Assembly (NCBI GenBank): GCA_000999715.1
Contig: LCGL01000001.1
Coordinates: 387,139 to 451,138 of the forward strand
Direction of reading: 5' to 3'
DNA from: Candidatus Falkowbacteria bacterium GW2011_GWF2_43_32
GTDB taxonomy: Bacteria > Patescibacteriota > Patescibacteriia > Patescibacteriales > UBA12465
DNA length: 64,000 nt
The position numbers were made by a program, and so were the translations under genes. The notes beneath the pieces are model-generated. The model was not told where the DNA came from. It made no database searches and worked only from the letters and a program-made list of their open reading frames with translations. Positions 4,257 to 43,777 of the stretch are shown here, in pieces (within the stretch, counting starts at the first letter, position 1; each line of letters begins with the position of its first letter).

Positions 4257-4655
4257 TTATTCTAAAATTTGTCGACCGATGAAATAAGTCAGCGCATAAG
4301 CGGCGAAAACAATCACTATGCCGATGACGGCATTGGTGATCATGGTTTTGGCTTTGGAAATTTCTTGTTCATTGCCGCGCGCCGTCATCCAAGTGACGCC
4401 GGCGTAAATCATTAAGACAAAGAAAAGCACGCCGACAAAGGCCAGTACGACGCCGACGACTTGTCCGACTTTGGTGGTCAGGAATCCGGGCCCGAAAGTT
4501 TCGTTGGTTTGACTGCGGAAAGCGTCCACGCGGGAAGCGGTGCTGTTTAGACCCTCCAACGTAGTGTCCAGAGCCGTTTGCGCCTGAATGACATTGAAAA
4601 CGGAGAAAAAGGCGAAGACGGCGGAGAATAGAGAGATAAAAATAGTTTTTTTCAT
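4257..4655 (-). CDS. VirB2/TrbC-like pilin family protein (paralog 5)
   Basis: Signal peptide (..VIQAQ), motif VTWMTARGNEQEISKAK, two TM helices. Confidence 0.7.
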   Translation of the reverse strand: MKKTIFISLFSAVFAFFSVFNVIQAQTALDTTLEGLNSTASRVDAFRSQTNETFGPGFLTTKVGQVVGVVLAFVGVLFFVLMIYAGVTWMTARGNEQEISKAKTMITNAVIGIVIVFAAYALTYFIGRQILE

Positions 4656-7401: not shown

Positions 7402-7968
7402 TTAAGGTTTCGGCTGACAGCATTGGATGTTGCTTGCTCCCGGACACAGACCGGTGCGACAATTTTGACCGATGGCGTTATCCATGCAACTGTAGCCCTG
7501 ACTGCCATAAGTGGCGGCGCATTGATTGCTGGTGCCGCCGCTCCAAGCTATTCCCAGTGAACCCATGACGAATTTTATGATCAGGTAGCTGGAAAATACG
7601 ATAATCAAACCGATCACCGAGGCGACGATTATTTTTTTGGCCTTGCTGATGGCCTCGCTGGAGCCGGCGGAAATCAGAAACGTGAAGCCGCCGTAAATGA
7701 ACATTATTAAAGACAAAGAGCCGACAATCCCCAAAATCCATTTGGAAATATTGATGGCCATCACCATAAAATCGTTGACGGTATAAATTCCGCAGTAGGT
7801 GGCATCGCCGCCGGGGCAACTATTGCCGATTGGGTCTCCCTTATCATTGTAGACGTTAATGTCTCCGGTTGCGGGTGGGAGAATATTGCCCTGCGCTTTG
7901 GCGATAGCGCCGAGCAGGCCAAAACCGATAATCAAGAATAAACTGAAGATGACGTATTTTTTAAACAT
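7402..7968 (-). CDS. VirB2/TrbC-like pilin family protein with Cys-rich C-terminal extension (paralog 7)
   Basis: Signal peptide (..IAKAQ) and a core like the six tandem paralogs (YGGFTFLISAGSSEAISKAKK plus a second TM). Extra Cys residues occur in the N-terminal part, and a roughly 55-aa tail carries 7 Cys (..CAATYGSQGYSCMDNAIGQNCRTGLCPGASNIQCCQPKP). Confidence 0.65.
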   Translation of the reverse strand: MFKKYVIFSLFLIIGFGLLGAIAKAQGNILPPATGDINVYNDKGDPIGNSCPGGDATYCGIYTVNDFMVMAINISKWILGIVGSLSLIMFIYGGFTFLISAGSSEAISKAKKIIVASVIGLIIVFSSYLIIKFVMGSLGIAWSGGTSNQCAATYGSQGYSCMDNAIGQNCRTGLCPGASNIQCCQPKP

Positions 7969-17471: not shown

Positions 17472-17546
17472 TGGTGTCTCCAGGGGGAATCGAACCCTCA
17501 TCTTGAGATCCGGAATCTCACGTTCTATCCGTTGAACTATGGAGAC
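17472..17546 (-). tRNA. tRNA-Arg(CCG), CCA encoded
   Basis: Reverse complement GTCTCCA-TA-GTTC-AACGGATA-GAAC-G-TGAGA-TTCCGGA-TCTCA-AGAT-GAGGG-TTCGATT-CCCCC-TGGAGAC-A-CCA. Perfect acceptor, D and anticodon stems; one mismatch in the T stem. Confidence 0.8.
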
Positions 17547-17665
17547 CTTGTTAGTTTGTTTAGAACCCCTTTTATCATAGGATTCTTTATTGCGTGCTTC
17601 TTTGATTATTAAGCAAATGCGCCGAAAAATCAAGCGATGGCGCGAAGCCGTGAGTCGTAGATTTT

Positions 17666-18652
17666 TTAGTCGATGAATTTCAAATAAATAGTTTTATGGC
17701 CTAATTCATTTTTTAAGATTTCTTTCCATTCCGGCACGACTTCGGACAATCGGTTGATTTTATTTTTGTCCAAAAATAGCGGATCAACCAATCGGGATTT
17801 CAGATGGATTATTTTATCATAATTCTTCTGGCTATCCTTAAATTTTATTTTATTATCAATGCGAGTAAACAAACGGGACAATTCCGGATCGCTATCATGA
17901 AAGACGGCCAGTTTGTCCAAAACTTCCCGATCGGTCGTATATAAATCAGCTTTCTCCAGATAACCGCGCTCCAAAGCGTGGCGCAAATATTCGCCGACCG
18001 CTTGATGCATGGCGCCGGCATGAGGCGCGGTATAATAGTTAGTGTTTAGCAGTCGAAAAAGTTCGGCATATTTTTTGGCCGTTGCCAAGTTTTTAAAAAT
18101 CCAGAAATTATCTTTGACGATTAAATTATTTAAAATTTCTTGAAGGTTATCGGTCGAAATATCCTCATAAGCGATAGCCGTACGCAAAGAATAGTCTATT
18201 CGGTCGGCGCACAAATCCGGCAGAGGCTTTTCTTTCAAGGGGAAATTTTTATCATCTAAAATATAATCCGGATCTAAATCATATTTCTTAAGAATCGCCG
18301 GTAAATCGGAGTTCCGCACGAACTCCGCGAAAATATTATCCTGATGATTCTGTTCTTTGCCGTCGCCGCCTTCTAAAATGTAGTCGATACTATGTGAAAA
18401 AGCCGAGTGGGAAACGTCATGAATCAGCCCGGAAACTTGTTCGGCCAGTGGCGCGTCGTACTTTTTTAACAGCCAGTAAACGCCAATGGAATGTTCCAAG
18501 CGATTGATAATTTGATCCGTTCGCCAATAAGGTTTGGTGTGGCCGCCCTGATCCACGCCGGCCAAGCGGCGTAAAAACGGCGAAGCGAGTAGCTCCAAAA
18601 TAATCGGTTCCGTGATATTTATTTGCCCGTAAGCGCGATCGAAGATGAGCAT
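17666..18652 (-). CDS. HD-domain metal-dependent phosphohydrolase
   Basis: RLEHSIGVYWL...GLIHDVSHSAFSH gives the H...HD...D pattern. 328 aa. Confidence 0.7.
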   Translation of the reverse strand: MLIFDRAYGQINITEPIILELLASPFLRRLAGVDQGGHTKPYWRTDQIINRLEHSIGVYWLLKKYDAPLAEQVSGLIHDVSHSAFSHSIDYILEGGDGKEQNHQDNIFAEFVRNSDLPAILKKYDLDPDYILDDKNFPLKEKPLPDLCADRIDYSLRTAIAYEDISTDNLQEILNNLIVKDNFWIFKNLATAKKYAELFRLLNTNYYTAPHAGAMHQAVGEYLRHALERGYLEKADLYTTDREVLDKLAVFHDSDPELSRLFTRIDNKIKFKDSQKNYDKIIHLKSRLVDPLFLDKNKINRLSEVVPEWKEILKNELGHKTIYLKFID

Positions 18653-18658
18653 ATATGA

Positions 18659-19564
18659 TTAATTGTTTGTTTTGCGGCTATTATACACAAAGTCTTCGTT
18701 GATTTTCCAAACACCTTTTTCCCGAAAAGCCGGGATATTTTGACGTCGAGCGGCATTAAGCATAGCCGGCGCAGATAAGCTATGAATTTTTGTGTATTCA
18801 GACAAAGTAATAATTTTTTGATTTTTAAGATAAGTGATTCTTTTATGCAATGATTCGGTCAAAGCCAAAGAAATAACTTTTTCCATTGTTTTAGTGTTCT
18901 TTTTGTCCCGATAAACCTCAAACGCTTTGTAATATTCTTTTTTCTCTCGGTCACGGATGGTAACTACCGGAAAACCGAGCTGTTGAAGTTGAAAACAAAT
19001 AAGAATCCGGCCAATCCGGCCGTTGCCGTCGTTAAAGGGATGGATATTTTCAAAATCCAAATGAAATTTAGCTACTTTGTCCAAGAAATAATTTGACAGG
19101 TCGCCGGTATATTCAAGAATTATAGTTTTAATCATCAATTTAGCCTGTTCCGGAGCCGGAGCGACGTATGTCCCGACTCGAACATATTCGCCGGTATTCC
19201 TAAAACGGCCGGCGATTTCATCATCTATGCCACCGATCAACATCTGATGTAAAAGTAAAATTAATTCTTCGTTGATTTCCGTCTCTCGGCCTTTGTTTCG
19301 GATATAACCGATGACTCGGGCTAAATTTTTTGCCTCATAGGCTTCGCGCAGAGAAACGTCTCTGGAAATTTCCATGTCCAGAAGAATTTTCTCGGTTTCT
19401 TTGAGAGTCAGAGTGGAATTTTCAATGGCATTGGAGTTATAGACGCTTTCCGGAACTTCTGCTTCGTCAAGTATAGTCAAAAGCGACTCTCTGCCTTGGC
19501 GAAGAGTATCAAATTCGTTTTTCAGGGCGGTAAGCCGGGTTTTTATCGGTTTGGTTATGGCCAT
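18659..19564 (-). CDS. Fic/DOC family protein
   Basis: Canonical Fic motif HPFNDGNGRIGR. Start placed at the ATG at 19564 (MAITKPIK). Confidence 0.85.
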   Translation of the reverse strand: MAITKPIKTRLTALKNEFDTLRQGRESLLTILDEAEVPESVYNSNAIENSTLTLKETEKILLDMEISRDVSLREAYEAKNLARVIGYIRNKGRETEINEELILLLHQMLIGGIDDEIAGRFRNTGEYVRVGTYVAPAPEQAKLMIKTIILEYTGDLSNYFLDKVAKFHLDFENIHPFNDGNGRIGRILICFQLQQLGFPVVTIRDREKKEYYKAFEVYRDKKNTKTMEKVISLALTESLHKRITYLKNQKIITLSEYTKIHSLSAPAMLNAARRQNIPAFREKGVWKINEDFVYNSRKTNN

Positions 19565-19688
19565 ATAATATATTGCAATTATATACCATTCACTAAAAAA
19601 TGTCAATACTTAGTGAATTTAACCTATTTTATAGCTATTTTCACTAAAAAATAGAGTTTTTATAAGCGATTTCTTTATTTAGTTTAGA

Positions 19689-19760
19689 AGTCTCCAGGGG
19701 GAGTTGAACTCTCATCTTGAGATCCGGAATCTCACATTCCATCCGCTGAGCTATGGAGAC
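19689..19760 (-). pseudogene. Degenerate second copy of tRNA-Arg(CCG)
   Basis: About 89% identical over about 70 nt to the tRNA at 17472..17546, with identical acceptor and anticodon arms. It has mismatches in the D stem (GCTC/GAAT) and T stem (GAGAG/CCCCC) and no encoded CCA. Confidence 0.5.
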
Positions 19761-22334: not shown

Positions 22335-23009
22335 TTAGCATGATTTGCCGGGATTTTCAATCGGTTTTAATGGTGTTTGTCGATGTTCAGAGCGGTAGAT
22401 GGGCAGAGTTTTAAAAGGCAGTTTTTTCAATAATTCCGTTTTGACCGCCAGCATAATGTTTTGCCGGTACCACCAGTCAACTTGTTGATTATGAGCCAGC
22501 TTGGCGCGAAAAGGATCCAGCAGTTCATAGCCGTGTCGACGAAAAAGATTCTGCCAATATTCCGGCCATTGTTCGTTCACGTGACCGATGCCAATGTCGC
22601 CTTGGCCGGGAATGGCGGCACTGAAAAGAATGATGTCGGCGGCAGTCGTTAAATTGCGAATAAACAGTTCCGCTTTATCGGCCGGTAAATGTTCGGCCAC
22701 TTCCAGGCTAATCGCCAAGTCAAATTTTTTGTTCAAGATTAGGGGTGCCGATAAATCATGCGCCAAAAAAGAGGCGGCGGGAATATATAGTTTTTTTATA
22801 TCAATATAGTCTCCGTCTATTCCCAAGATTTCTTTTGCGCCTTGTTCGGCAAAAGCTTTCAACCAAGTTCCCAGTCCGCAGCCGACATCAACCACGCTGT
22901 GCGGTTTTATCAATTCTAATACTAGGGGAATAATGATTTTCGCCGACTGATATGATCCCTCGGCTTGTCGGGCGAAGAAATTGGCATCGTAGATATTTGA
23001 TTCATACAT
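22335..23009 (-). CDS. Class I SAM-dependent methyltransferase
   Basis: Motif I VVDVGCGLGTW. Start placed at the ATG at 23009 (MYESNIYD); the longer ORF would run through the junction repeat and terminator. Confidence 0.7.
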   Translation of the reverse strand: MYESNIYDANFFARQAEGSYQSAKIIIPLVLELIKPHSVVDVGCGLGTWLKAFAEQGAKEILGIDGDYIDIKKLYIPAASFLAHDLSAPLILNKKFDLAISLEVAEHLPADKAELFIRNLTTAADIILFSAAIPGQGDIGIGHVNEQWPEYWQNLFRRHGYELLDPFRAKLAHNQQVDWWYRQNIMLAVKTELLKKLPFKTLPIYRSEHRQTPLKPIENPGKSC

Positions 23010-23205
23010 AGAGTTGTTTCTTTTATTATAACAAAAAATAAGGCATTTGACCTTATTTTTATCGGCGGTGTACTCGGGGTAAGTCCCCCTATATAGCAAC
23101 ATTATAAGACTTTTCCGAGAACTTTTCATTGGACCATCTTTTTTTTCTGATATTCCTATGTATAAATTTTGATTATCAGTAAAATCCATAATTTTATTGT
23201 ATAAG

Positions 23206-24270
23206 CTAGATCTTTACATACCTTGTTCCCCGTCCTCGGCCAATTGCTTTTATTTTTTTCAGTGCTATTAAGCGAGCTAACGCTTGACGTACGGTCGGCA
23301 TCAGTACGCCGGTCGCTTTCATAATATCGCTCGGACTGGCCTCAAGTACGCCGGAAATATAATGCCAGACTTCATATTGCTTAGGCGAGAGGGTATCTTC
23401 AACTTTTTCTTCTTCAAGATAAACTAAAGCCGCAGTCGCCTGTTCTTTGATAACGACGAGAAAAAAGTTAAGCCAAGGCGAAATAGTGGCTTGGTCGGTC
23501 TTAAAAGTTTCTTGTGATTTACGCAGAGCAATATAATATTCGTCTTTCCGTTTTTCGACTAATTGTTCATGTGAAACATATTGAATAAACTGGTAGCCGT
23601 GACGGAGCAAAAGAAGATTGGTCAGCACGCGAGAAAGACGTCCGTTACCATCTTCAAACGGGTGAATCTTTAAAAATTCAATAACAAAATTAGCAATAAT
23701 AAGTAGCGGATGAAAACGATTCTTTTCAAACGCTTCCGCCGTCCATTCCACCAGTGCCTGCATTTCTATCGGCGTCAGATAGGCCGGAGTCGTCTCAAAT
23801 ATAATTTTAGCTACCCGCCCGTCAGGCCCCATTACGCCGACGGCATTTTCTATTTTTTTATACTGGCCTCGCTGTCGCTCATCTTTACTAGAATATTTAA
23901 GAAGTTCGTTATGCAATGATTGAATAATGCTTTCCCTAAGCGGTAAAGCTTGATAATTATCGAAAATGTTTTGTAAGGTCTCAAGATATCCTTGCACTTC
24001 TTGTGAATCTCGATCAGCAAATTTAGAAATCGCCAAACCTTGCATAATCTTCTTAACTTCTTCATCATTTAGCCTCGAGCCTTCAATACGAGTTGAAGCA
24101 CCGGCCGAAGTGATCAGGGTCGATTTTTTAAGATTAGTAATCGCTTGAGGCGTCATCCGTAAACCCGACTTAAATTCTCCCCTAATACCGTCAATTTCAG
24201 CCAAAAGAGCCACAATGTGTGGTTCCGGGCTCTTAATACGATTATCAAATTTTAGAGTATTATCGTTCAT
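23206..24270 (-). CDS. Fic family protein with C-terminal winged-helix domain
   Basis: Fic motif HPFEDGNGRLSR. The C-terminal segment (PSDIMKATGVLMPTVRQALARLIALKKIKAIGRGRGTRY) is wHTH-like. Confidence 0.85.
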   Translation of the reverse strand: MNDNTLKFDNRIKSPEPHIVALLAEIDGIRGEFKSGLRMTPQAITNLKKSTLITSAGASTRIEGSRLNDEEVKKIMQGLAISKFADRDSQEVQGYLETLQNIFDNYQALPLRESIIQSLHNELLKYSSKDERQRGQYKKIENAVGVMGPDGRVAKIIFETTPAYLTPIEMQALVEWTAEAFEKNRFHPLLIIANFVIEFLKIHPFEDGNGRLSRVLTNLLLLRHGYQFIQYVSHEQLVEKRKDEYYIALRKSQETFKTDQATISPWLNFFLVVIKEQATAALVYLEEEKVEDTLSPKQYEVWHYISGVLEASPSDIMKATGVLMPTVRQALARLIALKKIKAIGRGRGTRYVKI

Positions 24271-24526
24271 AAAATTGTTTATAATTAATGATATATACTA
24301 TATAGCAGATTATAGCAGTAAATAGCAGATTAATCAAGTAGGCTTTATTTAGTAGATATAATTACTTACTTTGGAATAAATGATATTTATATAAAAATTA
24401 GCTAAAATATATAATTATTTACTATTATTTTGCTTACTCCCTCCCTAGCTTTGGAACTTTTGGGCATCAAAAAATAAGGCATTTGACCTTATTTTTATCG
24501 GCGGAGAGGGGGCGCACTGGGAATGG

Positions 24527-24931
24527 TTATCGCTTAATTTCCATGCCCGTGCCTGACAATTTAAAACCGAATTTTTTATAGAAAGGAATCAAAAATTCTT
24601 TATTTTCCGGAGACGCAAATACACCAATAGAGGTATAACCTTTATCGTTAACCTGACTAATTAAACTATTCATGATCATTTTTCCGATTCCTTTGCCTTG
24701 ATAATCTTTGTGAACGACAATATCGTACAGCATGCACATTATTCCGTCTTCTAGAATTCTTCCCATGCCAACCATTAAATTTCCATCCCAGACGCTATAA
24801 ACAAAAGAAGATTTTTCCAGAATCTCTTTCCATTTTTCTGGACCACGATGTCTGTGCCAACCAACCGAATCGCGAAGAGATTCTATTTGTTTAACATCTA
24901 GATTTTTTTTTGTGGATTCAATCAAGTTCAT
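24527..24931 (-). CDS. GNAT family N-acetyltransferase
   Basis: Acetyl-CoA motif A VHKDYQGKGIGKMIM. 134 aa. An extended -10-like TGATATAAT lies only about 8 nt upstream of the ATG. Confidence 0.8.
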   Translation of the reverse strand: MNLIESTKKNLDVKQIESLRDSVGWHRHRGPEKWKEILEKSSFVYSVWDGNLMVGMGRILEDGIMCMLYDIVVHKDYQGKGIGKMIMNSLISQVNDKGYTSIGVFASPENKEFLIPFYKKFGFKLSGTGMEIKR

Positions 24932-25051
24932 ATATATTAATTATATCACGACGTTCCAAAGTGATAAACTCCCTAGCAAAAAATAGCCCCAATATTAGGG
25001 CTATTTACAATCTGCGGAGAGGGTGGGACGTAGTTGGAACGGTTATAACTT

Positions 25052-25486
25052 TTAATTAGTTTCTATCTTCTTTAAATCTCTAGTGAGTTTTCTTAATTTA
25101 TTCGGAATTTTTAATTTTAAGAACTCATCTATACTAACCCATTTGTATAAGTCATGCTCCCAACTTATCAACAATTTCCCCCTAGAAATAAAACCTCTAA
25201 ATGCCAAAGTTACCCAATAATCACCTGATAAGGTAGTGTGAGCATCAACACCAAAAAGACTTATATTATTAACAACCAAACCAGTCTCTTCTTTAACTTC
25301 TCGAATTATAGACTTTAGAGGTTCTTCACCAAATTTAACATCACCCCCAGGAAGATCCCAGTATAAAGGGTTCGAAGGAGCGGTTTTCGTACGTCGCATA
25401 GTTAAAAATTTCCCATTCAGACCAAATACAAAAGCTTTTTGAGAAAATCCTATTACTCCCATTTTTGGCTGTTTTTTCTTAACCAT
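25052..25486 (-). CDS. NUDIX hydrolase
   Basis: Perfect Nudix box GGDVKFGEEPLKSIIREVKEETGL. Start placed at the ATG at 25486; the track's start is a TTG inside the junction repeat. Confidence 0.75.
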   Translation of the reverse strand: MVKKKQPKMGVIGFSQKAFVFGLNGKFLTMRRTKTAPSNPLYWDLPGGDVKFGEEPLKSIIREVKEETGLVVNNISLFGVDAHTTLSGDYWVTLAFRGFISRGKLLISWEHDLYKWVSIDEFLKLKIPNKLRKLTRDLKKIETN

Positions 25487-25731
25487 AAAATTAATAACAA
25501 AATCTTTTAAACATTCTTTTAACGGTTTTATTATATCATAGCGTTCCAAAGCAATAAACTCCCTATCAAAAAATAGCTCTAATATTAGAACTGTTTCTTA
25601 CTGCGGAGAGGGAGGGATTATATTGGAATGCGTGTTAACAATAAAGTTATTGATGTTATGGTCTGGAACAAATAAAAAAGGAAGACTATTGTTAGACTTC
25701 CTCTAAATTTTCCTTTAATCTTTTACTAAGC

Positions 25732-26136
25732 TCATCCTTTAAAATCCGGGTTATAAATTCCTTTTTTATATGCTTTATAGATATAGTTTCGGATAGCTTC
25801 AAGTTTCTTGAAGTAGGAATTGTCTACTTCAAAGATCTTTCCGTCTTTTACAAACTCTGTGGACGTCAAATTGAATGATACATCGTCAACTATAAAAGTT
25901 TTTTCGTTCCAAGAAATCTTGACATTTTCATTCTTTGATCCTGAATTATAGTCGTAATAACTAATAGCTATTGAAATGTTGCTGTCCGGATTCTTTTCTG
26001 AAACAGTTTTGTAAATTTCCTCTGACCAGTTTTTGCAGGTTCCAGGAATATTCAACATCATAAGTTGTGCTTTTAATGAAGTGTTAATCAACAATCCCAA
26101 AGCAACGATACTTAAAAGAATAAATACTTTTTTCAT
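25732..26136 (-). CDS. Hypothetical secreted protein
   Basis: Signal peptide MKKVFILLSIVALGLLINTSLKAQ. No recognisable domain. Confidence 0.55.
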   Translation of the reverse strand: MKKVFILLSIVALGLLINTSLKAQLMMLNIPGTCKNWSEEIYKTVSEKNPDSNISIAISYYDYNSGSKNENVKISWNEKTFIVDDVSFNLTSTEFVKDGKIFEVDNSYFKKLEAIRNYIYKAYKKGIYNPDFKG

Positions 26137-26407
26137 GATTCTACCTTTTTAAGATTAATAATAATTTGATTAATTACTAAATCCGCCTGTTTTCAGACAA
26201 TCTTAGTAATTAATCAAATTTAACCTTATTTTTTAAAGTTCTAAACTAACAAAAAAATATACCATACTGGTATACTTTTGTCAATCAGCGGGGTGTTAGG
26301 GACGCTATCTGAACTTTTTTGATGGATTATTCATAACATTAGGTAAATATGTAGTTTAGTTTTTGTTAAAAAAGGAGTCATTGATTGACTCCTTGTGTTT
26401 TTCACAA

Positions 26408-26695
26408 TTAGTATAAGAACAGTTTTAATTCTGTTTCTTCTATACAAATTTTTGCATTAATTCTGACAAGTTTCTTTCTTAAAGTATTTATACCAGGCTC
26501 GTACTTCCTTTCTGATAATACTTTTTCCAGACTTTCTTTTTCTTGCTTTAACTTGCCCAATTTTGCTGATTTTCTTTTTTCAATAATATACATATCACTT
26601 CCGGACAATGTGCTTACTATATTGACCATGATGAAGTGAGCAATTGTGCGGCACATAAATTCACTGACACCTAAAGAAAAAAATAATAAAACCAA
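26408..26695 (-). CDS. Hypothetical small protein (possibly the 3' part of a disrupted gene)
   Basis: 95-aa ORF with a hydrophobic N-terminus and a charged helix. A 43-aa hydrophobic ORF (26723..26854, minus) lies just upstream in another frame, so a frameshifted membrane protein is possible. Confidence 0.3.
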   Translation of the reverse strand: MVLLFFSLGVSEFMCRTIAHFIMVNIVSTLSGSDMYIIEKRKSAKLGKLKQEKESLEKVLSERKYEPGINTLRKKLVRINAKICIEETELKLFLY

Positions 26696-27106
26696 ACCAT
26701 TGAACCAGTTTAATTCCAGTTCTAATTGCAGTCAGGCATAGAAAAAACCTATCAGCAATATTGAAGTAAAAAAATAGATAAACATTGAATCTGATAATTT
26801 TCTGTAAAAATAATTAAACAAAAAATTTTCTTTCTTTTTTGTTACAGCATTCATGATGATTTCCTCCTTTTAATTATTAAAGTTCATATTTATATAACAA
26901 AAAATTATAATAAATTAATAACATTTTGTCAATCATCGGTTCCCACATTCTGAACTTAAGCTTAATTTAGCGCAAAAAAACAAGCATTCGAACTAAATAA
27001 TTTTATCTAATATTAGATTTAATAATGTTGTTTTTATAATAACCGTCCCTGACACCTTCAGTCAATTATAACTATTTTGTAACTCGATATTTTTGCTTAT
27101 ATAAAA

Positions 27107-27340
27107 CAAAAAATAAGGCTATAAACCTTATTTTTGGCGAACTGCGGAGAGGGAGGGATTTCCGCCCTCGCTCCGCTTCCGCGTCGCTCACTTGTCCCGG
27201 GTCAGCTCAATCGCATCCTCGCCGCTCGGAAAAGCGGCTCGGATTTGTTTTGCTTCTTCCGCCAGCCGGCGGACTGTTCGGATCCCTTTCGTCTTTTACG
27301 CATACAAAAATACAACCCAGAAGGGTTATATTTTTGTATG
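27107..27340 (-). repeat. GC-rich mini-element, copy A (direct repeat of 29603..29826)
   Basis: Near-identical to copy B apart from a 3-nt and a roughly 13-nt indel. Contents: terminator AAAAAATAAGGCTATAAACCTTATTTTT, the tRNA-Ser 3' core, about 150 nt of GC-rich sequence, and a 40-nt hairpin at 27301-27340. Confidence 0.85.
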
Positions 27341-27390
27341 CGGGGTGTCGTGGACGTTGTTAGAACTGGGATGTTTAAAAATACCAACAA

Positions 27391-28011
27391 TTAGCAATTT
27401 TCTGTAAACTTTTTAAACTCCTCAATATCTTCCTCGGAACCTAGTATACGAACTTGTTCTGGCTCAAAGACAACATATTCATCGGGATAAACAGACCTAT
27501 CATCTATACTCTCATCAGCAACGCCAATTATGCTGTCATAGCCATCTTTTTTTAATTGATCAAGATCGGCCTGCTGAATATTGGCCACATTTCTATAACT
27601 ATTATCGCCCACACCTATCTTTACACTTTTGGGGGATGTCATTTTTAACAACACGCTATACATTTGCTCTCCAAACCCACTGGCATATTCAATATCGCTA
27701 GTAAAATAGTGGCCTAAACCATACCTCATTTTCAATTCATCCCTACCTAATTTTTTATTGTATTTTGTATTATCGAATTTTTCTATTCCTTCATTTCCTT
27801 CATGATAAAGAATATTTTTTATTTTACTTTGAGGAAACACAACATCCAGATACTGAGAGTATTGCTCTTGGCTGCCAATAGAAGCTAACTCTGGATTTTT
27901 CTCAAAAACAAAATCAACCCCCTTTTTAATAGCAGCGGATTCTACCTTATTCTGATTATGTTCGGCTGTGAGATTAATTTCATCACCGATATTATTATGA
28001 AAAAAATTCAT
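27391..28011 (-). CDS. ADP-ribosyltransferase-like domain protein (phage/conjugative 'polyvalent protein' ART-type)
   Basis: QEQYSQYLDVVFPQSKIKNILYHEG..., GHYFTSD..., DSIIGV..., DEYVVFEPEQVRILGS. This is an H-Y-E-like arrangement that I recall from ART domains of polyvalent proteins. Not searched. Confidence 0.45.
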   Translation of the reverse strand: MNFFHNNIGDEINLTAEHNQNKVESAAIKKGVDFVFEKNPELASIGSQEQYSQYLDVVFPQSKIKNILYHEGNEGIEKFDNTKYNKKLGRDELKMRYGLGHYFTSDIEYASGFGEQMYSVLLKMTSPKSVKIGVGDNSYRNVANIQQADLDQLKKDGYDSIIGVADESIDDRSVYPDEYVVFEPEQVRILGSEEDIEEFKKFTENC

Positions 28012-28329
28012 ATTTTTATTAGAATTTTTATGTTTTTCTGATGTCAGGAAAACATCTGTGGATAATTAATCTTAAAAACAACAAAAAACTGTTAATTCTA
28101 TATTCTTCTATGATGTATATTATTCTTTATTAAATATACAAAAATTTATTTTTTATTACCTATATTAAGACAATTATAGCATAAATAGTGATAAAATCAA
28201 GATTGAAAAATTGAATTTGAAATGGGTTCGAACTAATAAAAATCCTCAAAAACAAAAGACGAAGTGAGCTTTTAGAGCTACTTCGTCCCTTACTGCGGAG
28301 AGGACGGGACGTAGTTGGAACGGTTTTGA

Positions 28330-28944
28330 CTAAACAATGAGTAAATTCTTTAATTCTCTTAAATTATGTATTATAAAATTTGGGCTGTTAAGGGCTAGCC
28401 TGGTTTCAGAAGTAAATCCCCAAGTTACTGCTACGGTGCTAATACCAACTAGTTTGCCTACCTCTATTTCATGATTTGTGTCTCCAATTATTACTGTTTC
28501 TGTTTTATTAAAGTTATATTTATTAATTAAACTTTTTACCGACTCAACCTTATCATGAACATTGGAAATAACTTCTAAAAATACTCCATTTAGACCGAAG
28601 ATAACAAGTTCTGAAGTTATCGTCTCAACCAAATCAGAGCTAATGACAACCATCTTAATGTTATTAGCTTGTAATTCTTTAATTAACACGGCAATATTTT
28701 GATAAGCCTTGGGGACACGTTCCATAATCGCTTTCTTATAAACCACTGTTTGCTGTTTGCTGGAGAGGGCTGGTAAGTATTTGTTATAAAACATCATATG
28801 GGGCTGAATCCATTCTTCTTTTAGTTCTTTTAAGCTCATTTGTCTAACACCAAAGAACTGAAATACTTTATTAACAGCAAAAAGATGGTCCTCCACAGAA
28901 TCTTTAATTACACCAGACCAATCAAATATAATATTTTTTATCAT
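28330..28944 (-). CDS. HAD-superfamily hydrolase
   Basis: Motif I IIFDWSGVI at the N-terminus, motif IV IGDTNHEIEVG. 204 aa. Confidence 0.7.
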   Translation of the reverse strand: MIKNIIFDWSGVIKDSVEDHLFAVNKVFQFFGVRQMSLKELKEEWIQPHMMFYNKYLPALSSKQQTVVYKKAIMERVPKAYQNIAVLIKELQANNIKMVVISSDLVETITSELVIFGLNGVFLEVISNVHDKVESVKSLINKYNFNKTETVIIGDTNHEIEVGKLVGISTVAVTWGFTSETRLALNSPNFIIHNLRELKNLLIV

Positions 28945-29135
28945 ATTTACTTATTATTTTTTGTTAATATAAGAATATCATATCGTTCCAAAACAATAAA
29001 CTTCATATCAAAAAATAGCCCTAACATTAGGACTGTTTCTTACTGCGGAGAGGGGGGGGTAGTTGGAATGATTTTAGATAAATAAAAAAGGAAGTCTGAT
29101 GTTTTAGCCTTCCTTTTAAAACCAGGCACAGCATT

Positions 29136-29420
29136 TTAGAACAACAATTTTTTTTGTTCCCAAAGTCTGTCCAATTTTTTTGACAAAAACCCGTTATAGA
29201 AATAACCAGATATAAGCAGAGCGGCAAATGCAGAGAGTGTAACAGTAATTGTTATTGCTGCGGTTTCGCCATGATCGATTATAGGTGTTGATAAGGCTTT
29301 GCAATATATAATGGCCACAATAGCAGCCGTTACAAAAAATAATATCCTTAGCCATTCTTTTGTTAATTGCACCTTGTTTTCTTTACGGCAGATTTCGTCG
29401 ATTTTGGTTTCTTTTTTCAT
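29136..29420 (-). CDS. Hypothetical small membrane protein
   Basis: 94 aa, two predicted TM helices, ATG start. Confidence 0.45.
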   Translation of the reverse strand: MKKETKIDEICRKENKVQLTKEWLRILFFVTAAIVAIIYCKALSTPIIDHGETAAITITVTLSAFAALLISGYFYNGFLSKKLDRLWEQKKLLF

Positions 29421-29602
29421 GATTTTATTTTTTTAATGTTCAATTTAATAACAATATTATAGCATATTTTATTAAATATGTCAATTGATGGATAAAATGA
29501 CCCACTTAAACTAACACTATTTATATTAATATTAGCTAAAATATAACATTATATAACAATATTTTTGCTTATTCCTTATTTAGTTTTGGAACTTTTTGAC
29601 AC

Positions 29603-29826
29603 CAAAAAATAAGGCTATAAACCTTATTTTTGGCGAACTGCGGAGAGGGAGGGATTTCCGCCCTCGCTCCGCTTCCGCGTCGCTCACTTGTCCCGGGTCA
29701 GACGCTCAACCGCATCCTCGCCGCTCGGAAAAGCGGCTCGGATTTGTTTCGCTTCTGACCTGTTCGCATCCCTTTCGTCTTTTACGCATACAAAAATACA
29801 ACCCAGAAGGGCTGTATTTTTGTATG
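29603..29826 (-). repeat. GC-rich mini-element, copy B, abutting the tRNA-Ser 3' end
   Basis: In tRNA sense the order is: terminator hairpin CATACAAAAATACAGCCC-TTCT-GGGTTGTATTTTTGTATG (29787-29826) immediately after the tRNA; about 150 nt GC-rich sequence; GAGCGACGCGGAAGCGGAGCGAGGGCGGAAAT; a second copy of the tRNA 3' end CCCTCCCTCTCCGCA (29640-29654, with the upstream AAAT to 29658); and a second terminator. Confidence 0.85.
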
Positions 29827-29914
29827 CGGAGAGGGAGGGATTCGAACCCTCGATGCCCTTTCGGGCATACCGGTTTTCGAGACCAGCGCACTAGACCAAC
29901 TATGCGACCTCTCC
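29827..29914 (-). tRNA. tRNA-Ser(CGA)
   Basis: Reverse complement GGAGAGG..CTGGT-CTCGAAA-ACCGG, long variable arm TATGCCCGAAAGGGCATC, T-arm GAGGGTTCGAATCCCTC, acceptor CCTCTCC-G. Confidence 0.9.
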
Positions 29915-38952: not shown

Positions 38953-39024
38953 GGTCCCTTCGTCTAGTGGTTAGGACATCAGGTTTTCATCCTGGTAACA
39001 GGGGTTCGATTCCCCTAGGGACTA
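38953..39024 (+). tRNA. tRNA-Glu(TTC)
   Basis: GGTCCCTTCGTCTAGTGGTTAGGAC..TCAGG-TTTTCAT-CCTGG..AGGGGTTCGATTCCCCT-AGGGACT-A. Confidence 0.9.
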
Positions 39025-39254
39025 CTAATTAAAAAGTGCTCAGCGTTAGCTGGGCATTTTTTAATTAGACGGCGTTAGCCGAGGGGAATCGGACGGGCGG
39101 CAGCGAACTAGATATTTGCCAGTAGGCAAATATCGCAGTGAGCGCCGACAAAAGCGAGCTAGCGTAGCTTTTGGCGCCGCCCAGGACAACGAGAGAGCGA
39201 GCTCCGCCAGCTGGCGGAGGTGAGCGAACGAGGCGGAATTCCCCTAGGGACTAC
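39025..39254 (+). repeat. GC-rich mini-element abutting the tRNA-Glu 3' end (same architecture as the tRNA-Ser elements)
   Basis: Terminator hairpin CTAATTAAAAAGTGCTCAGC-GTTA-GCTGGGCATTTTTTAATTAG directly after the tRNA. Then GC-rich sequence with several perfect hairpins (ATATTTGCC-AGTA-GGCAAATAT; CTCCGCC-AGCT-GGCGGAG). Then GAGCGAACGAGGCGGAATT plus a second copy of the tRNA 3' end ATTCCCCTAGGGACTAC (39238-39254), and a second terminator (39259-39297). Confidence 0.8.
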
Positions 39255-39759: not shown

Positions 39760-39922
39760 TTTTAAATTACTAAAATTTCCGCCCATCTCTCAATTTCCCC
39801 AATAATCCCGTCAAAATTTTGGCAAATTTTAGACTTTAGGACTACATAAAAAAAATAACGTGCAATTTGCACGTTATTTTTTTTATGACGCCGTAGGCGG
39901 AAGAATCGAACAAATTAAAATA

Positions 39923-40573
39923 TTATTTCTCTAAAATCAATTCTCCGGTAGCTAACGCTTCTTCATGGGAAGCGCAGCGCGGCCATGGTCGCTCTAAAAC
40001 ATCCTCTGAATCAAAAATAAATATAAAGCAATCTCCGGGAGGGACTTTGCCATAGTTGTTTGTTAAAATATGGTCTTTCTCTTTCCAGATAATTCGTGAA
40101 TAAATAGACCACGGGTCTGTTCCGGTTTCAACACGATGATGTATTACGTGAAGCATGGCTTTCTTCCCATTACACAAATCGCCAGAATGAAACTCGCGTA
40201 CGCCAAGTTCAGTTGGTAAATAAAGATTGGATTCATGATCTACCGTATATTCAATAATGCTGCCAACTGCTTTAAAAAATGAACTTAATAAAACATTATC
40301 ATCACTTGTAACAAAACCATCAGCAATAACCTTGCCGGATTCACTCCGTGTAAACAGACCATTTCTTTTAGTTTTGAGATCTTCTTTGTCTATTTTTAAA
40401 AATATTTCTTCGCCACACGCAAATATACGGTAATCAACCCTTGATAAAAGCTCTTCCATTTTTTTACTTCGCTCTCTATTTTTTAATACAAAAAATATGC
40501 TTATACAAATAACCAGTGCCGCTAAAAGGCTTAAAATACCAAATTTATAAATATGATTTTTTATTAATTTCAT
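39923..40573 (-). CDS. Membrane-anchored hypothetical protein (candidate immunity/partner of the upstream YkuD-like protein)
   Basis: N-terminal TM anchor (FGILSLLAALVICISIFFVL) plus a roughly 175-aa extracytoplasmic domain. The start codon is 2 nt after the upstream stop, so the two are probably co-transcribed or translationally coupled. Confidence 0.5.
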   Translation of the reverse strand: MKLIKNHIYKFGILSLLAALVICISIFFVLKNRERSKKMEELLSRVDYRIFACGEEIFLKIDKEDLKTKRNGLFTRSESGKVIADGFVTSDDNVLLSSFFKAVGSIIEYTVDHESNLYLPTELGVREFHSGDLCNGKKAMLHVIHHRVETGTDPWSIYSRIIWKEKDHILTNNYGKVPPGDCFIFIFDSEDVLERPWPRCASHEEALATGELILEK

Positions 40574-40575
40574 AT

Positions 40576-41538
40576 TTAATCAATAATTTCAAGCACGCCT
40601 ACGCTTATAAAATCTCCTTTACGCGCTTTGATTAATTTGTCGTATATCTCATTCCATTTTTCAATTTCGATTACTGTGATGCAGCCAAGCGAAGCTCTGC
40701 CTGTATGCAAATATTTTTCACCTGAATGCCCAATCCTAAACCAAGTTTTAAATCTAGATGATATATTAACATAACTGCTTGGGTCTTTGTGCGGATAATC
40801 CGGCAACTCAATGTCATGCCAACCCTTTTTCCATGGCGAACCGGTATAATCCGTGGTCTGATATTTTTTATTATCGATGATCAATGCTTTTTGGGAAATA
40901 GAGTATTGTAAATGGATTAGCGGCTCATGTTCAATTTTTGACAGAAAACGTGACTCCTTATTTTCGTCCAAACTAACCGACCCTTTTTGTCCACGATATA
41001 TTCCTTCTAAAATTGTAAAATATTCGCGCCCGCCTTCAATATAATCTGATTGTATTTTTAGGAAGGCGGGGAGAGAGACCGCATCACCATCTACGATTTT
41101 AACTTTAAGCCAGCCGTTATCTATATCGGGTGTATATTTTATTGTATTTATGACTAATGCTTCAATGGTGACTTCAAAAATAGCAATGGACTTGCCCCAG
41201 GTCTTGCCAAAACGATTTTCCCGAAGCTCAATATTATAGGTGAAATTTTGCGGTTTAATATCACCCGTGTCGACTTTAATTGTCTTTTCTGTCTTCCCAA
41301 TATCATTAAATAATATATCTTTTTCGGTAACGGTAATTTTTACGTTAGCAGAAAATGTTTTTTGGTCAGAAGGAAAAGTACCTATCGATTGATTGAGCTC
41401 GGCGGTTTTTCTAGCCCGCATCCTTTTATCGACACGCAAGACCTGATCCAGTAGCTCTATGTCAATACGGATGTCGTTACCAATTGATTTGCCCGTATAT
41501 TTTATTTTTATCAATTTGAACTGAATTTTTTTAAGCAT
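40576..41538 (-). CDS. L,D-transpeptidase-fold (YkuD/Tlde1-DUF2778-like) domain protein, no signal peptide
   Basis: C-terminal ...WFRIGHSGEKYLHTGRASLGCITV..EKWNEIYDKL. This is a His ... S-x-G-C-(I/V) arrangement like the YkuD catalytic H/C motif and T6SS Tlde1-type toxins. The N-terminal roughly 200 aa are beta-rich and unrecognised. Confidence 0.5.
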   Translation of the reverse strand: MLKKIQFKLIKIKYTGKSIGNDIRIDIELLDQVLRVDKRMRARKTAELNQSIGTFPSDQKTFSANVKITVTEKDILFNDIGKTEKTIKVDTGDIKPQNFTYNIELRENRFGKTWGKSIAIFEVTIEALVINTIKYTPDIDNGWLKVKIVDGDAVSLPAFLKIQSDYIEGGREYFTILEGIYRGQKGSVSLDENKESRFLSKIEHEPLIHLQYSISQKALIIDNKKYQTTDYTGSPWKKGWHDIELPDYPHKDPSSYVNISSRFKTWFRIGHSGEKYLHTGRASLGCITVIEIEKWNEIYDKLIKARKGDFISVGVLEIID

Positions 41539-41554
41539 AAAGATTTTTTATTTT

Positions 41555-42034
41555 TTAAATTTTTAATACATCCTGCCTATTCAATATCGAGTGCAGCTCT
41601 TTAACTTTTATCAATAAGACTCTAGCATCTGTATGGGCTTGACTTAATTCTGCTTCCGAGATTCCGATAAAATCACCATATTCAATTCTATTTCTTTTCT
41701 TTCTCATTTGTTGGAATCTTTGAAATTCATTACTGAGCTCACCGTTAAGCAAGGTAGCGGCGGCATTAATTACGATATAATGATGCCCCTCTCCACTTGT
41801 TTTTGCTCTATATCCGTTAATTAACAATATGGCTTCACAGCACAATCTTATAGAATCATAGATGTTGTTATACACAATATCCTCGTCTCCAGTGCCTAAT
41901 CCGGACAAATTTTTATTTGCATAATTATATAACCTGTCTGCCTTCTCAATTTTTATTTCAACCCCTTTTAAGTTAAGCAAAAAAGGCTCAATAGAATTAT
42001 TATTCAACAGTGTTTGAATCTCTGGTAAAATCAT
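41555..42034 (-). CDS. HEPN-domain protein (toxin-like partner of the upstream nucleotidyltransferase)
   Basis: All-helical 159 aa with MRKKRNRIEYGD (the R-x-x-R-N-x-x-x-(H/Y) HEPN-type motif). Overlaps the upstream MNT gene by 35 nt. Confidence 0.55.
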   Translation of the reverse strand: MILPEIQTLLNNNSIEPFLLNLKGVEIKIEKADRLYNYANKNLSGLGTGDEDIVYNNIYDSIRLCCEAILLINGYRAKTSGEGHHYIVINAAATLLNGELSNEFQRFQQMRKKRNRIEYGDFIGISEAELSQAHTDARVLLIKVKELHSILNRQDVLKI

Positions 42035-42587
42035 ATGGGTCTCCTTTTAATTTAATTATTGGCGATAGAAATATATTAGATATAAAATTATTTTTTTCTT
42101 TTATCTTTTTAACAATTTCTTGACTGCTGTAAATATGATAATTTATTTCTCTGGCAATTTTTCTTTCTATAGAACTTATCATGGTAATAAGGGCATTTTG
42201 GTTTATGTCCCCAATTAACATTAAATCAATATCGCTATTATTATTTTCTGTTCCTTTGGCGATTGATCCGAAAACAAAAGCACATTCAACATTATCAAGT
42301 TTATCGACTAACTTTTTTAATTCATTTTCTAAGCCGAATGTTTTTGAAATAATACTTTTTATTTCCTCGTAAAGCGGGTGAGCTTTATTTAATTTAAAAA
42401 AACGCATATTTCCGCGACGCTCATCTAATAATATCCTATCTTCCACTAAATTATCCAAATATTTTTGATAATGACTCGGTTCTTTCTTTAAGTTTTTGGC
42501 AATTTCTCTAAAATAGTATTCCTTTTCTGGGTTTTTAAAAAATAGCTCGATGATTTCTCCACCGCCCTTTTTCAAGAAATTTAGCAT
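42000..42587 (-). CDS. wHTH + minimal nucleotidyltransferase (MNT) domain protein
   Basis: N-terminal wHTH-like segment (YYFREIAKNLKKEPSHYQKYLDNLVEDRILL). NTase motif FVFGSIAKGTENNNSDIDLMLIG (G-S-x10-D-x-D). Confidence 0.7.
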   Translation of the reverse strand: MLNFLKKGGGEIIELFFKNPEKEYYFREIAKNLKKEPSHYQKYLDNLVEDRILLDERRGNMRFFKLNKAHPLYEEIKSIISKTFGLENELKKLVDKLDNVECAFVFGSIAKGTENNNSDIDLMLIGDINQNALITMISSIERKIAREINYHIYSSQEIVKKIKEKNNFISNIFLSPIIKLKGDPYDFTRDSNTVE

Positions 42588-42943
42588 AGTATGTTTGATA
42601 ATTTTTATTTCAATTATTCTTGATTATATTATACACTATTTATGTACAATTGTACATACTTTGTATATGGTGGCTAACATTAGTAAATAATTACACATTT
42701 ATCAAGAGAAGGGTTAAATTATCCCAAAACTTCCCCCCACTTCTCAATTTCCCCAATAATCCCCTCAGAATTTTGGCAAATTTCAGACTTTAGGACTACA
42801 TAATAAAAATACTCCAACTTTTTGGAGTATTTTTATTATTTTGATAATTTATTTTTCCCTGTTGACAATTTTGCATAAAAGAGATATTCTTTTTTGAAAC
42901 ATAAATATCATAAACTATTGGTCATTAACAAAAATTTATAAAA

Positions 42944-43528
42944 ATGGAAACAAACGATGAGCCGCAAAAAGACGAAGTAACTCAGCGTGATTTAGAAATT
43001 CTCGAAATTTTTATTTCTAATTCATTGGAAGCCACTGTCAGGGCCAAAAAAGCGATTATTTGGTTTTTACGCCAAAGTAATTATTTGCAATCCAATATTG
43101 CCATGTCCATCTCATCACCTTCTAGGAAAAGCGATGAGTATAAATGGGCTCAGGAAGTTGGCATTGCTCTTCATGACATGAGATTGCCAATCAGGATAGA
43201 TGACCTCTTTTCTTTAATGAGGATTTCAAAACGTTTTGTTTCTCATTGTGGAGTGGCAAAGAAAATTAGTGATGATCTAATTGAACTTGAAACTGGTTGG
43301 GACAGTGAACATCAGAGACATGTCCCGGTAGACCTTCTTGGTTATACAATTTGGCTGGCTGACGAGTTTTATCAAAAAGAAGTTTATCTGATTGAATTCA
43401 AGCCCGCAGAAGTTAAAGTTGTAAAGCTACGAAAAGATCATTCGGATGTGATAGAATATCATGGTAAAGAGTTTTATGAAGATTGCGAAATTCCTAAAAA
43501 TCTCCGCGACGTTCAAGCAAGGTGGTAA
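42944..43528 (+). CDS. Hypothetical protein
   Basis: 194-aa ORF with an ATG start. It is the only gene in its cassette. No recognisable domain. Confidence 0.45.
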   Translation: METNDEPQKDEVTQRDLEILEIFISNSLEATVRAKKAIIWFLRQSNYLQSNIAMSISSPSRKSDEYKWAQEVGIALHDMRLPIRIDDLFSLMRISKRFVSHCGVAKKISDDLIELETGWDSEHQRHVPVDLLGYTIWLADEFYQKEVYLIEFKPAEVKVVKLRKDHSDVIEYHGKEFYEDCEIPKNLRDVQARW

Positions 43529-43777
43529 AAGTCTCAGCTCTTAACAAATAAAGTCTATATCCATGAGATAAGGTATAGACTTTTTATTTTAAGTAAGATT
43601 TATCAGCCAATGTCAGAATTTCCACTCACTTCTCGATTTCCCTAACAATTTTCTCAAAATTTTGAGAAACTTCAAAACCTAGGACTACTAACTAAAAAGA
43701 TCCAATATTTACCGGATATTGCTTAATTTGCTTTTCCGGTTTTTATTTATTAAACTTAAAAATATAGAATAAACAAT

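Follow-up and report, generated by a model that had tools for sequence, protein, structure and literature searches.

An array of accessory genes at tRNA-Ser(CGA)

We analyzed a 64,000-nucleotide stretch of the genome of Candidatus Falkowbacteria bacterium GW2011_GWF2_43_32 (contig LCGL01000001.1, positions 387,139 to 451,138 of the forward strand; this whole stretch is called the window here, and positions refer to it unless another locus is named), in which an AT-rich array of small genes lies downstream of a tRNA-Ser(CGA) gene. An original prediction had described this array, from the letters of the window, as an integron-like series of mostly single-gene cassettes anchored on the tRNA 3' end, separated by junctions that repeat this end, and lacking any recombinase. 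Much of this description held up: ARAGORN and Rfam both placed the tRNA on the minus strand, which also holds all genes downstream of it in the array; GC content was 0.28-0.38 over 23-30 kb versus ~0.43-0.48 in the flanks; and Pfam agreed with the functions that had been named (HAD, ART-PolyVal, NUDIX, GNAT, Fic and class I methyltransferase), returning no significant family for three small cassette open reading frames (ORFs) (Table 1).

The repeats that separate the cassettes are real and statistically solid, and they derive from the tRNA 3' end. The plus-strand 17-mer CTGCGGAGAGGGAGGGA had seven matches in the window at no more than three mismatches (0.06 expected from shuffles), at 25012, 25601, 27142, 28293, 29043, 29638 and in tRNA-Ser itself, and degenerate copies of this core were visible in alignments at 24499, 26288, 27340 and 23066. 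When the boundaries between tRNA-Ser and ~23000 were aligned, all ten (10/10; J1 to J10) carried a core-like element followed by a hairpin and a T-run. A profile built from nine junctions had all its window matches on the minus strand and within 24466-29841, with no significant match elsewhere in the 64 kb; a dispersal through intergenic regions of the kind known for repetitive extragenic palindromes (REP) or miniature inverted-repeat transposable elements (MITE) was not seen, the matches in the 64 kb forming one array on one strand. The proposed tRNA-anchored accretion of cassette-sized units is supported.

The window's lack of a recombinase was likewise borne out. Pfam found no integrase, transposase, recombinase or resolvase domain in window ORFs of at least 70 aa (five genes at 32.5-35.8 kb, encoding S6, SSB, S18, EF-P and a methyltransferase, were left out of the scan and covered by precomputed Pfam families instead), and tblastn with the recombinase and Rep proteins of the relatives described below found no remnant in the window. 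By both searches, the window lacks a gene combining Resolvase, Recombinase and Zn_ribbon_recom domains, and none of its units carries an integration module, which we saw only in the relatives L117 and L132 (the relatives' loci are labelled L001-L005, L114, L116-L119, L132-L135 and L137).

Exact protein matches place the window on a 417-kb scaffold (ANAN16) of the Rifle aquifer metagenomes, and its array is present in two other assemblies. An independent assembly of this genome (L002, JGI Ga0209417_1000024) breaks at its position 1, 286 nt before the first cassette gene and at the B1/B2 repeat described below; the array is a weak point of assembly, and strain variation may be hidden there.

Table 1. 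Features of the array and copies of the B module, listed in gene order from tRNA-Ser(CGA)
Feature	Locus	Position	Strand	Remarks
tRNA-Ser(CGA), array anchor	window	29826-29914	minus	ARAGORN and Rfam
B module copy 1	window	29638-29825	minus	A-rich hairpin and T-run, ~130 nt GC-rich, GGCGGAAAT, perfect 17-nt tRNA 3'-end copy at 29638-29654
J1 right half	window	29421-29637	minus	hairpin 29603-29637, GTTCCAAA box, 12/12 promoter match with TG extension at 29456-29484
Cassette 1, 94-aa small membrane protein	window	29136-29420	minus	no significant Pfam family
J2, full attR-type junction	window	28970-29079	minus	ATTCCAA box, core 29043-29059, hairpin, TTTGGAACG, -10-like element
Cassette 2, HAD hydrolase	window	28330-28944	minus	Pfam
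J3	window	28227-28331	minus	P arm CCGTTCCAACTACG, core 28293-28309, hairpin of different kind
Cassette 3, ART-PolyVal ADP-ribosyltransferase-like protein	window	27391-28011	minus	Pfam
J4	window	27338-27376	minus	degenerate P arm and core, directly joined to start of B module copy 2
B module copy 2	window	27142-27337	minus	95% identical to copy 1, one extra hairpin; perfect core 27142-27158
J5 right half	window	26855-27141	minus	hairpin 27107-27141, 12/12 promoter match 26904-26932
Cassette 4, 40-aa ORF and 95-aa ORF	window	26408-26854	minus	possibly one disrupted gene
J6	window	26235-26313	minus	degenerate P arm (AGTTCAGATAGCG), degenerate core ending ~26288, hairpin
Cassette 5, 134-aa protein	window	25732-26136	minus	N-terminal hydrophobic segment, no Pfam family
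J7, full attR-type junction	window	25527-25639	minus	core 25601-25617 identical to tRNA 3' end
Cassette 6, NUDIX hydrolase	window	25052-25549	minus	start codon uncertain; source annotation 136 aa
J8, full attR-type junction	window	24936-25050	minus	core 25012-25028
Cassette 7, GNAT acetyltransferase	window	24527-24931	minus	TGATATAAT ends 8 nt before ATG
J9	window	24466-24530	minus	degenerate P arm (CCATTCCCAGTGCG), core ending ~24499, hairpin
Cassette 8, Fic-domain protein	window	23206-24270	minus	Pfam; C-terminal region like a winged helix-turn-helix
J10	window	23032-23068	minus	remnant (..CACCGCC) and hairpin; inside N-terminal extension of mechanical ORF 22335-23189
Cassette 9, class I methyltransferase	window	22335-23009	minus	likely true start is ATG at 23009
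tRNA-Glu(TTC), then homologous B module	window	38953-39254 (B module 39026-39254)	plus	ends in 17-nt tRNA-Glu 3'-end copy at 39238-39254
B module	L005	685-852		after tRNA-Ser
B module	L119	17554-17761	minus	after tRNA-Val
B module	L117	20570-20708	minus	cut off by locus end

Two classes of junction built from interchangeable halves

The original prediction had seen one promoter-plus-terminator junction module, in which, in gene sense, a CGTTCCAAC box with the tRNA-like core is followed by a hairpin with its T-run, then by TTTGGAACG as the partner box, and then by the extended -10-like TGATATAAT. The junctions fall into two classes, not one. Class A has these parts in the order box CGTTCCAAC-TAC-G, core TCCCnCCCTCTCCGCA, hairpin and T-run, TAGGGAG..TTTGGAACG and then TGATATAAT; the four-part description applies in full to J2, J7 and J8 and partly to J3. 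Class B is a module of ~190 nt that occurs directly after tRNA-Ser and again after J4; the two GC-rich stretches in question (29638-29825 and 27142-27340) are 95% identical and make up a separate structured module, discussed below.

The class A right half was not built for the purpose. In L114 and L118, tRNA-Ser is followed by an aaatagcc..ggctattt hairpin, then by tttattgCTTTGGAgCG and then by TGcTATAAT, and this native downstream sequence has its homologues in J2, J7 and J8, in their right halves; the terminator and promoter module is therefore a copy of the native tRNA-Ser downstream region, that is, the tRNA's own terminator and the promoter of the next gene, and the junctions would therefore be attR-type sites. 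TGnTATAAT is the general promoter form of the window's genome and is found before core genes too; most cassettes come with a TG-extended -10 of their own, and for several there are full -35/-10 matches, all of them predicted from sequence only. A terminator scan listed seven sites versus six expected, most junction hairpins being AT-rich and unlisted, so that the scan says little on them. We rejected the right box TTTGGAACG as a -35 element, since it lies only 8 nt from the -10, and the junction hairpins as Xer/dif-like protein sites, since their stems vary freely with compensating changes. Rfam, at gathering and at permissive thresholds, had no match for the junction.

Across loci, the left and right halves of the junctions occur in many combinations around one constant joining point. 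Left halves are of three kinds (the tRNA, the P arm defined below, and the end of the B module) and right halves of five (the native hairpin type, the B-module start, an 'aaaaataagg' hairpin type, other hairpins, and the end of a recombinase gene). The native hairpin type follows J2, J7 and J8, as well as the tRNA itself in L114 and L118; the B-module start follows tRNA-Ser and J4; and the 'aaaaataagg' type follows J1, J5, J9 and J10, the hairpins of J9 and J10 being 100% identical.

Gene turnover between conserved flanks in relatives

Scanning a genome collection with the pseudouridine synthase returned two close relatives only (L004, which was too short, and L005), and the same scan of a metagenome collection returned relatives from other phyla at 54% identity or less (48% or less full-length), of no use for synteny. 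Syntenic relatives were reached instead by homologue search and contig look-ups, which gave DNA for seven and a gene list for an eighth. In the seven, the pseudouridine synthase is 59-72% identical to that of the window, and all share the same anchors: EF-P, Wzy_C, the pseudouridine synthase and tRNA-Ser flank the region at one end, DksA and Lsp at the opposite end, with tRNA-Arg(CCG) present in five of the seven and tRNA-Asp in six.

Between tRNA-Ser and the far anchor, synteny breaks and the content becomes strain- or species-specific: each relative has its own set of mostly same-strand accessory genes (for example adh_short, Methyltransf_21, Nuc_deoxyrib_tr and EamA in one, Asp_Glu_race in another, and NUDIX, Peptidase_S51, Ham1p, Ser_hydrolase, PEP-utilizers and Zeta_toxin in a third), the gene list of the eighth follows the same pattern, and no homologue of a window cassette protein was found in any of the seven readable loci. 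Cassettes thus turn over among relatives, as the original prediction required, and a strictly conserved gene order, the observation that was to have spoken against it, is ruled out.

The HAD cassette has homologues at 76-95% identity in three other loci. Two of these, L132 (reached through a 78%-identical homologue of this cassette) and L134, carry it at 76-78% identity beside different neighbor genes, so that it is more conserved than the housekeeping pseudouridine synthase (72% in the best relative). L132 holds ~17 class A-type junctions in 14 kb among ~20 same-strand genes. A further locus, L135, is a strain variant that is 98.2% identical to the window over 1.9 kb; its J2 is 100% identical, and its J3 carries six substitutions clustered in the 19-nt P arm and core (window 28291-28330) that bring the sequence nearer to the version in L117 and L137. 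This cluster points to a recent short-patch exchange at the junction.

A large serine recombinase at the same site in relatives

The original prediction had taken the reiterated tRNA 3' ends for the footprint of a tyrosine integrase, and had looked to the relatives for the missing enzyme. Searching the relatives did turn up a recombinase at tRNA-Ser, in L117 and L132, and it points to the serine family instead. In L117, an uncalled 502-aa ORF on the opposite strand directly after tRNA-Ser(CGA) has Resolvase, Recombinase and Zn_ribbon_recom domains and is, by its domain composition, a large serine recombinase (LSR); in L132, an LSR that is 70% identical and has the same three domains and the same length of 502 aa lies at tRNA-Ser(GCT). 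In both loci the last ~10 LSR codons run antisense to the T-arm and acceptor strand of the tRNA, and the LSR gene is followed by a Rep gene (PF23343) and a gene of 310-318 aa, the whole element at tRNA-Ser measuring ~6 kb. The LSR family is widespread in Patescibacteria.

A third copy of the element, in L137, is 95% identical to that of L117 and circularly permuted, with its attP intact. This permuted copy (L137 10001-15709) lies in a 158-kb chromosomal contig; LSR codons 1-59 are found 3.7 kb downstream of codons 57-499, which are fused to a GNAT N-terminus, and the permutation stems either from an artefact of assembly or from an unusual integration event through the gene of the recombinase.

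Four types of attachment site could be read across the loci. The attP of L137 has cattccaagtgcgtcccaccctctccgca on its left and ctgagttaaaatcgc... on its right; the attL of L117 joins its tRNA 3' end to the same right side as the attP of L137; the attR of L117 joins ccgttccaagtgcgtcccaccctctccgcg (the P arm) to gattgtaaatagccc... (the native B' side); and L114 and L118 show the native attB. The sequences of the four loci fit the relation attP x attB giving attL and attR. In the window, J2, J3, J7 and J8 have the attR form (J8 is 81% identical to the attR of the L117 element over 114 nt), and the box CGTTCCAAC with its core is therefore the P arm of attP; on sequence, these junctions are best read as attP's P arm linked to the B' side of attB. 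J4 joins a P arm to a B-module start, and an LSR element would therefore once have integrated at a tRNA-Ser that was already followed by a B module.

The two kinds of left half-site also differ in geometry. In all eight of the listed tRNA genes (8/8; that of L132 is tRNA-Ser(GCT)), the distance between the motif GTTCGAA and the core end is 16 nt; among them is tRNA-Ser(CGA) of the window, which has the form of a B-type left half-site. In the 20 cassette-type sites (19 junctions and the L137 attP), the distance between a GTTC(C/G)AA-like box and the core end is 21 nt in 18 cases and 19 and 20 nt in the other two. In serine integrases, the motif bound by the zinc-ribbon domain lies 5 bp closer to the center in attB than in attP (Rutherford et al. 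2013, PMC3783163); the spacing of 16 versus 21 nt, seen for left half-sites only, matches this offset. As for the point of exchange, the core in the attL of L117 matches L117's own tRNA and the core in the attR does not, and the crossover therefore falls between core position 10 and the end of ...CCGCA.

A structured module inserted at tRNA 3' ends

We found six copies of the B module: three in the window (after tRNA-Ser, J4 and tRNA-Glu) and one each in L005, L119 and L117. The module is ~190 nt long, and every complete copy ends in GCGGAA(A/T)T followed by a duplicate of its own tRNA's T-stem and acceptor 3' strands. In the window this tRNA-derived part is perfect, and in the other loci it shows progressive decay. 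The module's 5' segment is complementary to the tRNA-derived part and varies with tRNA identity, the internal helices covary (double compensatory changes in 7 of 21 predicted pairs), and the predicted folds are far more stable than those of shuffled sequences (z = -3.3 and -6.1). No promoter was visible between the first hairpin and the module, and Rfam had no match at the gathering threshold and only chance-level matches at E up to 10. The two array copies, B1 and B2, together with the hairpins that follow them form a 245-nt duplication whose right end is off any core.

The B modules are an element distinct from the cassettes, non-coding and structured, that has been inserted at the same point; an RNA gene, a miniature non-autonomous integrative element and a DNA-level structure are all candidates for its nature. 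A retro-copy of the mature tRNA was rejected, since the copies carry genomic GCA(G) and not CCA, and we found no supporting feature for a group II intron domain, a TnpB/IscB guide RNA or a rolling-circle single-strand origin. Probing IMG/VR viral contigs with the B motif, the LSR protein and the P arm gave chance matches only, so that by these probes the database contains neither the LSR element nor the B module.

Beyond tRNA-Glu, its B module and a NUDIX gene lies a second AT-rich block (39900-43600; GC 0.28-0.36) with four minus-strand ORFs lacking a Pfam match and a Polbeta-type nucleotidyltransferase; the junction profile has no matches in it. In L116 (11114-12821), a unit of two genes, coding for a 176-aa protein and a PRTase-like protein of 276 aa (neither with a Pfam match), lies together with a 295-nt non-coding stretch between direct repeats of the tRNA-Ser 3' end that are 22 nt long and perfect, with no 5-nt offset and no recombinase.

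Other features of the window

On the minus strand at 17472-19760, a Fic gene and an HD gene lie between two copies of tRNA-Arg(CCG), one of which has diverged (41.7 versus 64.5 bits). Relatives have a single tRNA-Arg with the HD gene directly before it, and the second tRNA-Arg with the Fic gene therefore looks like a tRNA-duplicating insertion. Six small paralogous ORFs of the T4SS_pilin family (PF18895), five of them in tandem, lie at 2622-4655 and 7402-7968 (minus). A Translin-family protein (PF01997), of a kind uncommon in bacteria, is encoded at 52371-52946 (minus) beside a double-length T2SSE/PilB-like ATPase of 1003 aa.

Weighing the explanations

We consider it fairly probable that the locus is a hypervariable, additive island at the 3' end of tRNA-Ser(CGA), in which the junctions are attR-type sites and the LSR of a ~6-kb Rep element moves the cassettes. 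A unit runs from one point just after ...CCGCA to the next, and comprises a copy of the native tRNA-Ser downstream region (terminator, TTTGGAACG and extended -10), a gene, the P-arm box CGTTCCAAC-TAC-G and the core. In the mechanism that we propose, the LSR element would integrate at the tRNA-Ser end and, together with a directionality factor, would excise through either the nearest attR or a more distal one; excision through a distal attR would take the intervening cassettes along as hitch-hikers, and, after integration at the tRNA-Ser of a new cell, excision through the proximal attR would leave them behind. Each resulting cassette would start with a copy of the tRNA-downstream terminator and promoter, would end with a P arm and core, and could be expressed from the promoter in its own copy. 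Such accretion with cis-mobilization is known from the ICE/CIME systems discussed below and has also been proposed for the Dehalococcoides ssrA islands (PMC3146451); tycheposon-seeded islands follow the same logic of seeding.

Several points weigh against this reading. No LSR was found in the window, and none of the best 120 LSR homologues lies on a contig that matches those of the window's genome in length; a more distant LSR may exist. Serine integrases normally recombine attP with attB only, or attL with attR if a directionality factor assists them. No such factor was identified; the 72-aa zinc-ribbon protein and the 310-318-aa protein of the element are candidates. By eye, the right half-sites contained no convincing inverted GTTC(G/C)AA, and the crossover can be narrowed no further than to the stretch between core position 10 and the point just after ...CCGCA. 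The LSR elements of L117 and L132 carry cargo without an internal attR and so show no cassette capture; no circular or excised cassette was seen among the loci examined, and no strain differed by the presence or absence of a cassette, L001-L003, L135 and L133 keeping the order of their closest relatives. The hitch-hiking route is thus a model and not an observation. Finally, the B modules and the L116 two-gene unit have exact duplications of 17-22 nt at their flanks that lack the 5-nt offset, and a second insertion mechanism at the same site is therefore suggested.

The exact duplications are also what a classical tyrosine integrase would leave after insertion into the tRNA 3' end, had its genes later been deleted; exact direct repeats of the tRNA 3' end are given as the usual footprint of these enzymes (Williams 2002, as cited within bioRxiv 10.1101/2020.12.28.424599). 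We regard this origin of the array as very improbable, since neither the window nor the variable region of any relative's locus contains a tyrosine recombinase domain, the one recombinase seen at this site belongs to the serine family, and most junctions have an offset P arm and not an exact tRNA duplication. A route without any dedicated recombinase, in which the ~100-bp terminator-promoter modules act as dispersed repeats and cassettes change by RecA-dependent recombination and gene conversion after DNA uptake, would account for junctions that are 70-90% identical over 90-115 nt, for the J3 patch of the strain variant, which resembles short-patch gene conversion, for the B1/B2 duplication with its right end away from a core, and for the identical hairpins of J9 and J10. 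It would not lead one to expect halves that recombine at one fixed point and not at variable positions, nor the constant spacings of 21 and 16 nt and the clean attP/attL/attR relation with the LSR element, and the cores, being short (16-17 nt) and often diverged, are poor substrates for it; we hold it to be improbable.

It is somewhat less hard to imagine, though in our judgement still unlikely, that the junctions are functional attC-like sites of a true integron analogue, from which single cassettes excise as circles and reinsert, at the tRNA or at other junctions, by a recombinase acting in trans (the LSR or another), so that the locus would be a dedicated capture-and-expression platform and not a row of scars. 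The regular architecture speaks for it, with mostly one gene per unit, each with its own promoter and terminator, in 10 units here and ~17 in L132, as does the imperfect palindrome of the junction, in which pairing of the two boxes, left with right, and of CTCCC with TAGGGAG encloses a central hairpin (z = -2.6 for the single-stranded DNA fold); yet the box pairing is 6-8 bp across ~80 nt with little covariation, and the right box and hairpin are already present at the native tRNA-Ser of L114 and L118, so that no special origin is needed. The cores of L132 and L117 match each other and the window junctions better than the local tRNA, the site therefore traveling with the cassette, and the patch exchange at J3 in a close strain and the HAD cassette with different neighbors in two other loci both fit mobile single cassettes; however, no circles or cassette-level polymorphism were seen, and in L132 and L134 the HAD gene sits in two-gene units with no junction between the genes, which means that unit boundaries are not fixed.

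A more ambitious account, tentative and to our minds doubtful, keeps the LSR of the additive island and makes it the motor of an integron analogue: cassettes with att sites that mimic tRNA-Ser, each with its own terminator and promoter, would be shuttled between genomes by the Rep and LSR element and would stack at tRNA-Ser, and alongside them the ~190-nt B module would insert at several tRNA 3' ends and duplicate them, in Falkowbacteria and perhaps in other Patescibacteria.

Relation to known systems

The array had been put forward as a system not described before. Its architecture matches known island accretion through site-specific recombinases at tRNA and tmRNA 3' ends (PMC3146451; bioRxiv 10.1101/2020.12.28.424599): the locus is an accretion island at tRNA-Ser, neither a categorically new system nor an integron, and what is new is the single-gene unit size and the ~190-nt structured element at tRNA 3' ends. 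The closest known systems are the ssrA islands of Dehalococcoides and the tycheposon islands of Prochlorococcus. In the former, the LSR gene overlaps attL and a conserved motif lies upstream of each direct repeat (McMurdie et al. 2011, PMC3146451). The likeness extends to tandem units located after the gene of a small stable RNA, whose 3' end recurs as a ~20-bp direct repeat at the bounds of each unit; to an extra motif just upstream of every repeat that cannot be aligned with the RNA gene; to an LSR as the integrase, with its 3' end over attL; to units without an integration module, read as cis-mobilizable; and to a region that is the main site of strain variation. The target there is tmRNA and here tRNA-Ser; the islands are multi-gene (primers amplify ~7 kbp of cargo from one), in contrast to the single-gene promoter/terminator units of 0.4-1.1 kb here; no unit in this window keeps an integration module; and the carrier element here has a rolling-circle-type Rep gene and a host from the candidate phyla radiation (CPR).

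Tycheposon-seeded islands begin at tRNA genes, with integration of transient elements on the tRNA-proximal side (Hackl et al., bioRxiv 10.1101/2020.12.28.424599), and share with our locus the partial tRNA copies scattered in the island, the absence of the element from most islands at a given time, and streamlined genomes without classical mobile elements; they differ in using mostly tyrosine recombinases and in being irregular, with no conserved junction per gene boundary. The accretion of ICEs (integrative and conjugative elements) and of cis-mobilizable elements (CIMEs), as in the Streptococcus thermophilus ICESt1/3 model (reviewed in PMC5704250), likewise involves att-flanked elements without recombination genes that are co-excised with an autonomous neighbor through alternative att sites, but it relies on tyrosine integrases and conjugative helpers, and its units are much larger and fewer.

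The comparison with integrons stands as a functional analogy and does not extend to membership. Like integrons and clusters of attC sites lacking an integrase (CALINs), the locus is a one-directional, mostly single-gene array with imperfect palindromic sites between cassettes, can occur without a nearby integrase, and varies in cassette content among relatives. Unlike in integrons, Pfam found no IntI tyrosine recombinase in the window or beside the arrays of relatives; the boxes (C)GTTCCAAC and TTTGGAACG miss the RYYYAAC/GTTRRRY consensus at the first position; the cassettes have their own predicted promoters where integron cassettes are promoterless and share a common Pc; and the anchor is a tRNA gene and not attI, with a site geometry that fits serine-integrase att sites. 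With the att sites of the LI/A118, Bxb1 and phiC31 integrases (PMC3783163), the junctions have in common a motif 5 bp further out in attP and hybrid attL/attR products. They depart from these in having the motif in left half-sites only, in a P arm that mimics the tRNA 3' end over 16 nt, and in the many attR-type sites in series.

Significance

CPR/Patescibacteria have tiny genomes with few recognizable mobile elements, and how they gain accessory genes is poorly understood. The locus offers a concrete route, with one tRNA-Ser as a landing pad for single accessory genes that bring a terminator and a promoter, and the content of the island differs in every relative examined. The locus merits follow-up for the regularity of its single-gene units, for the scale reached by the array of L132, for its CPR host and for the B module; the B module is a candidate for a new structured RNA or a miniature integrative element. 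If the link to the LSR holds, the biology of serine integrases would extend from phage-sized cargo to cassette-sized units, and these genomes would hold natural attP/attB pairs that target a tRNA 3' end.

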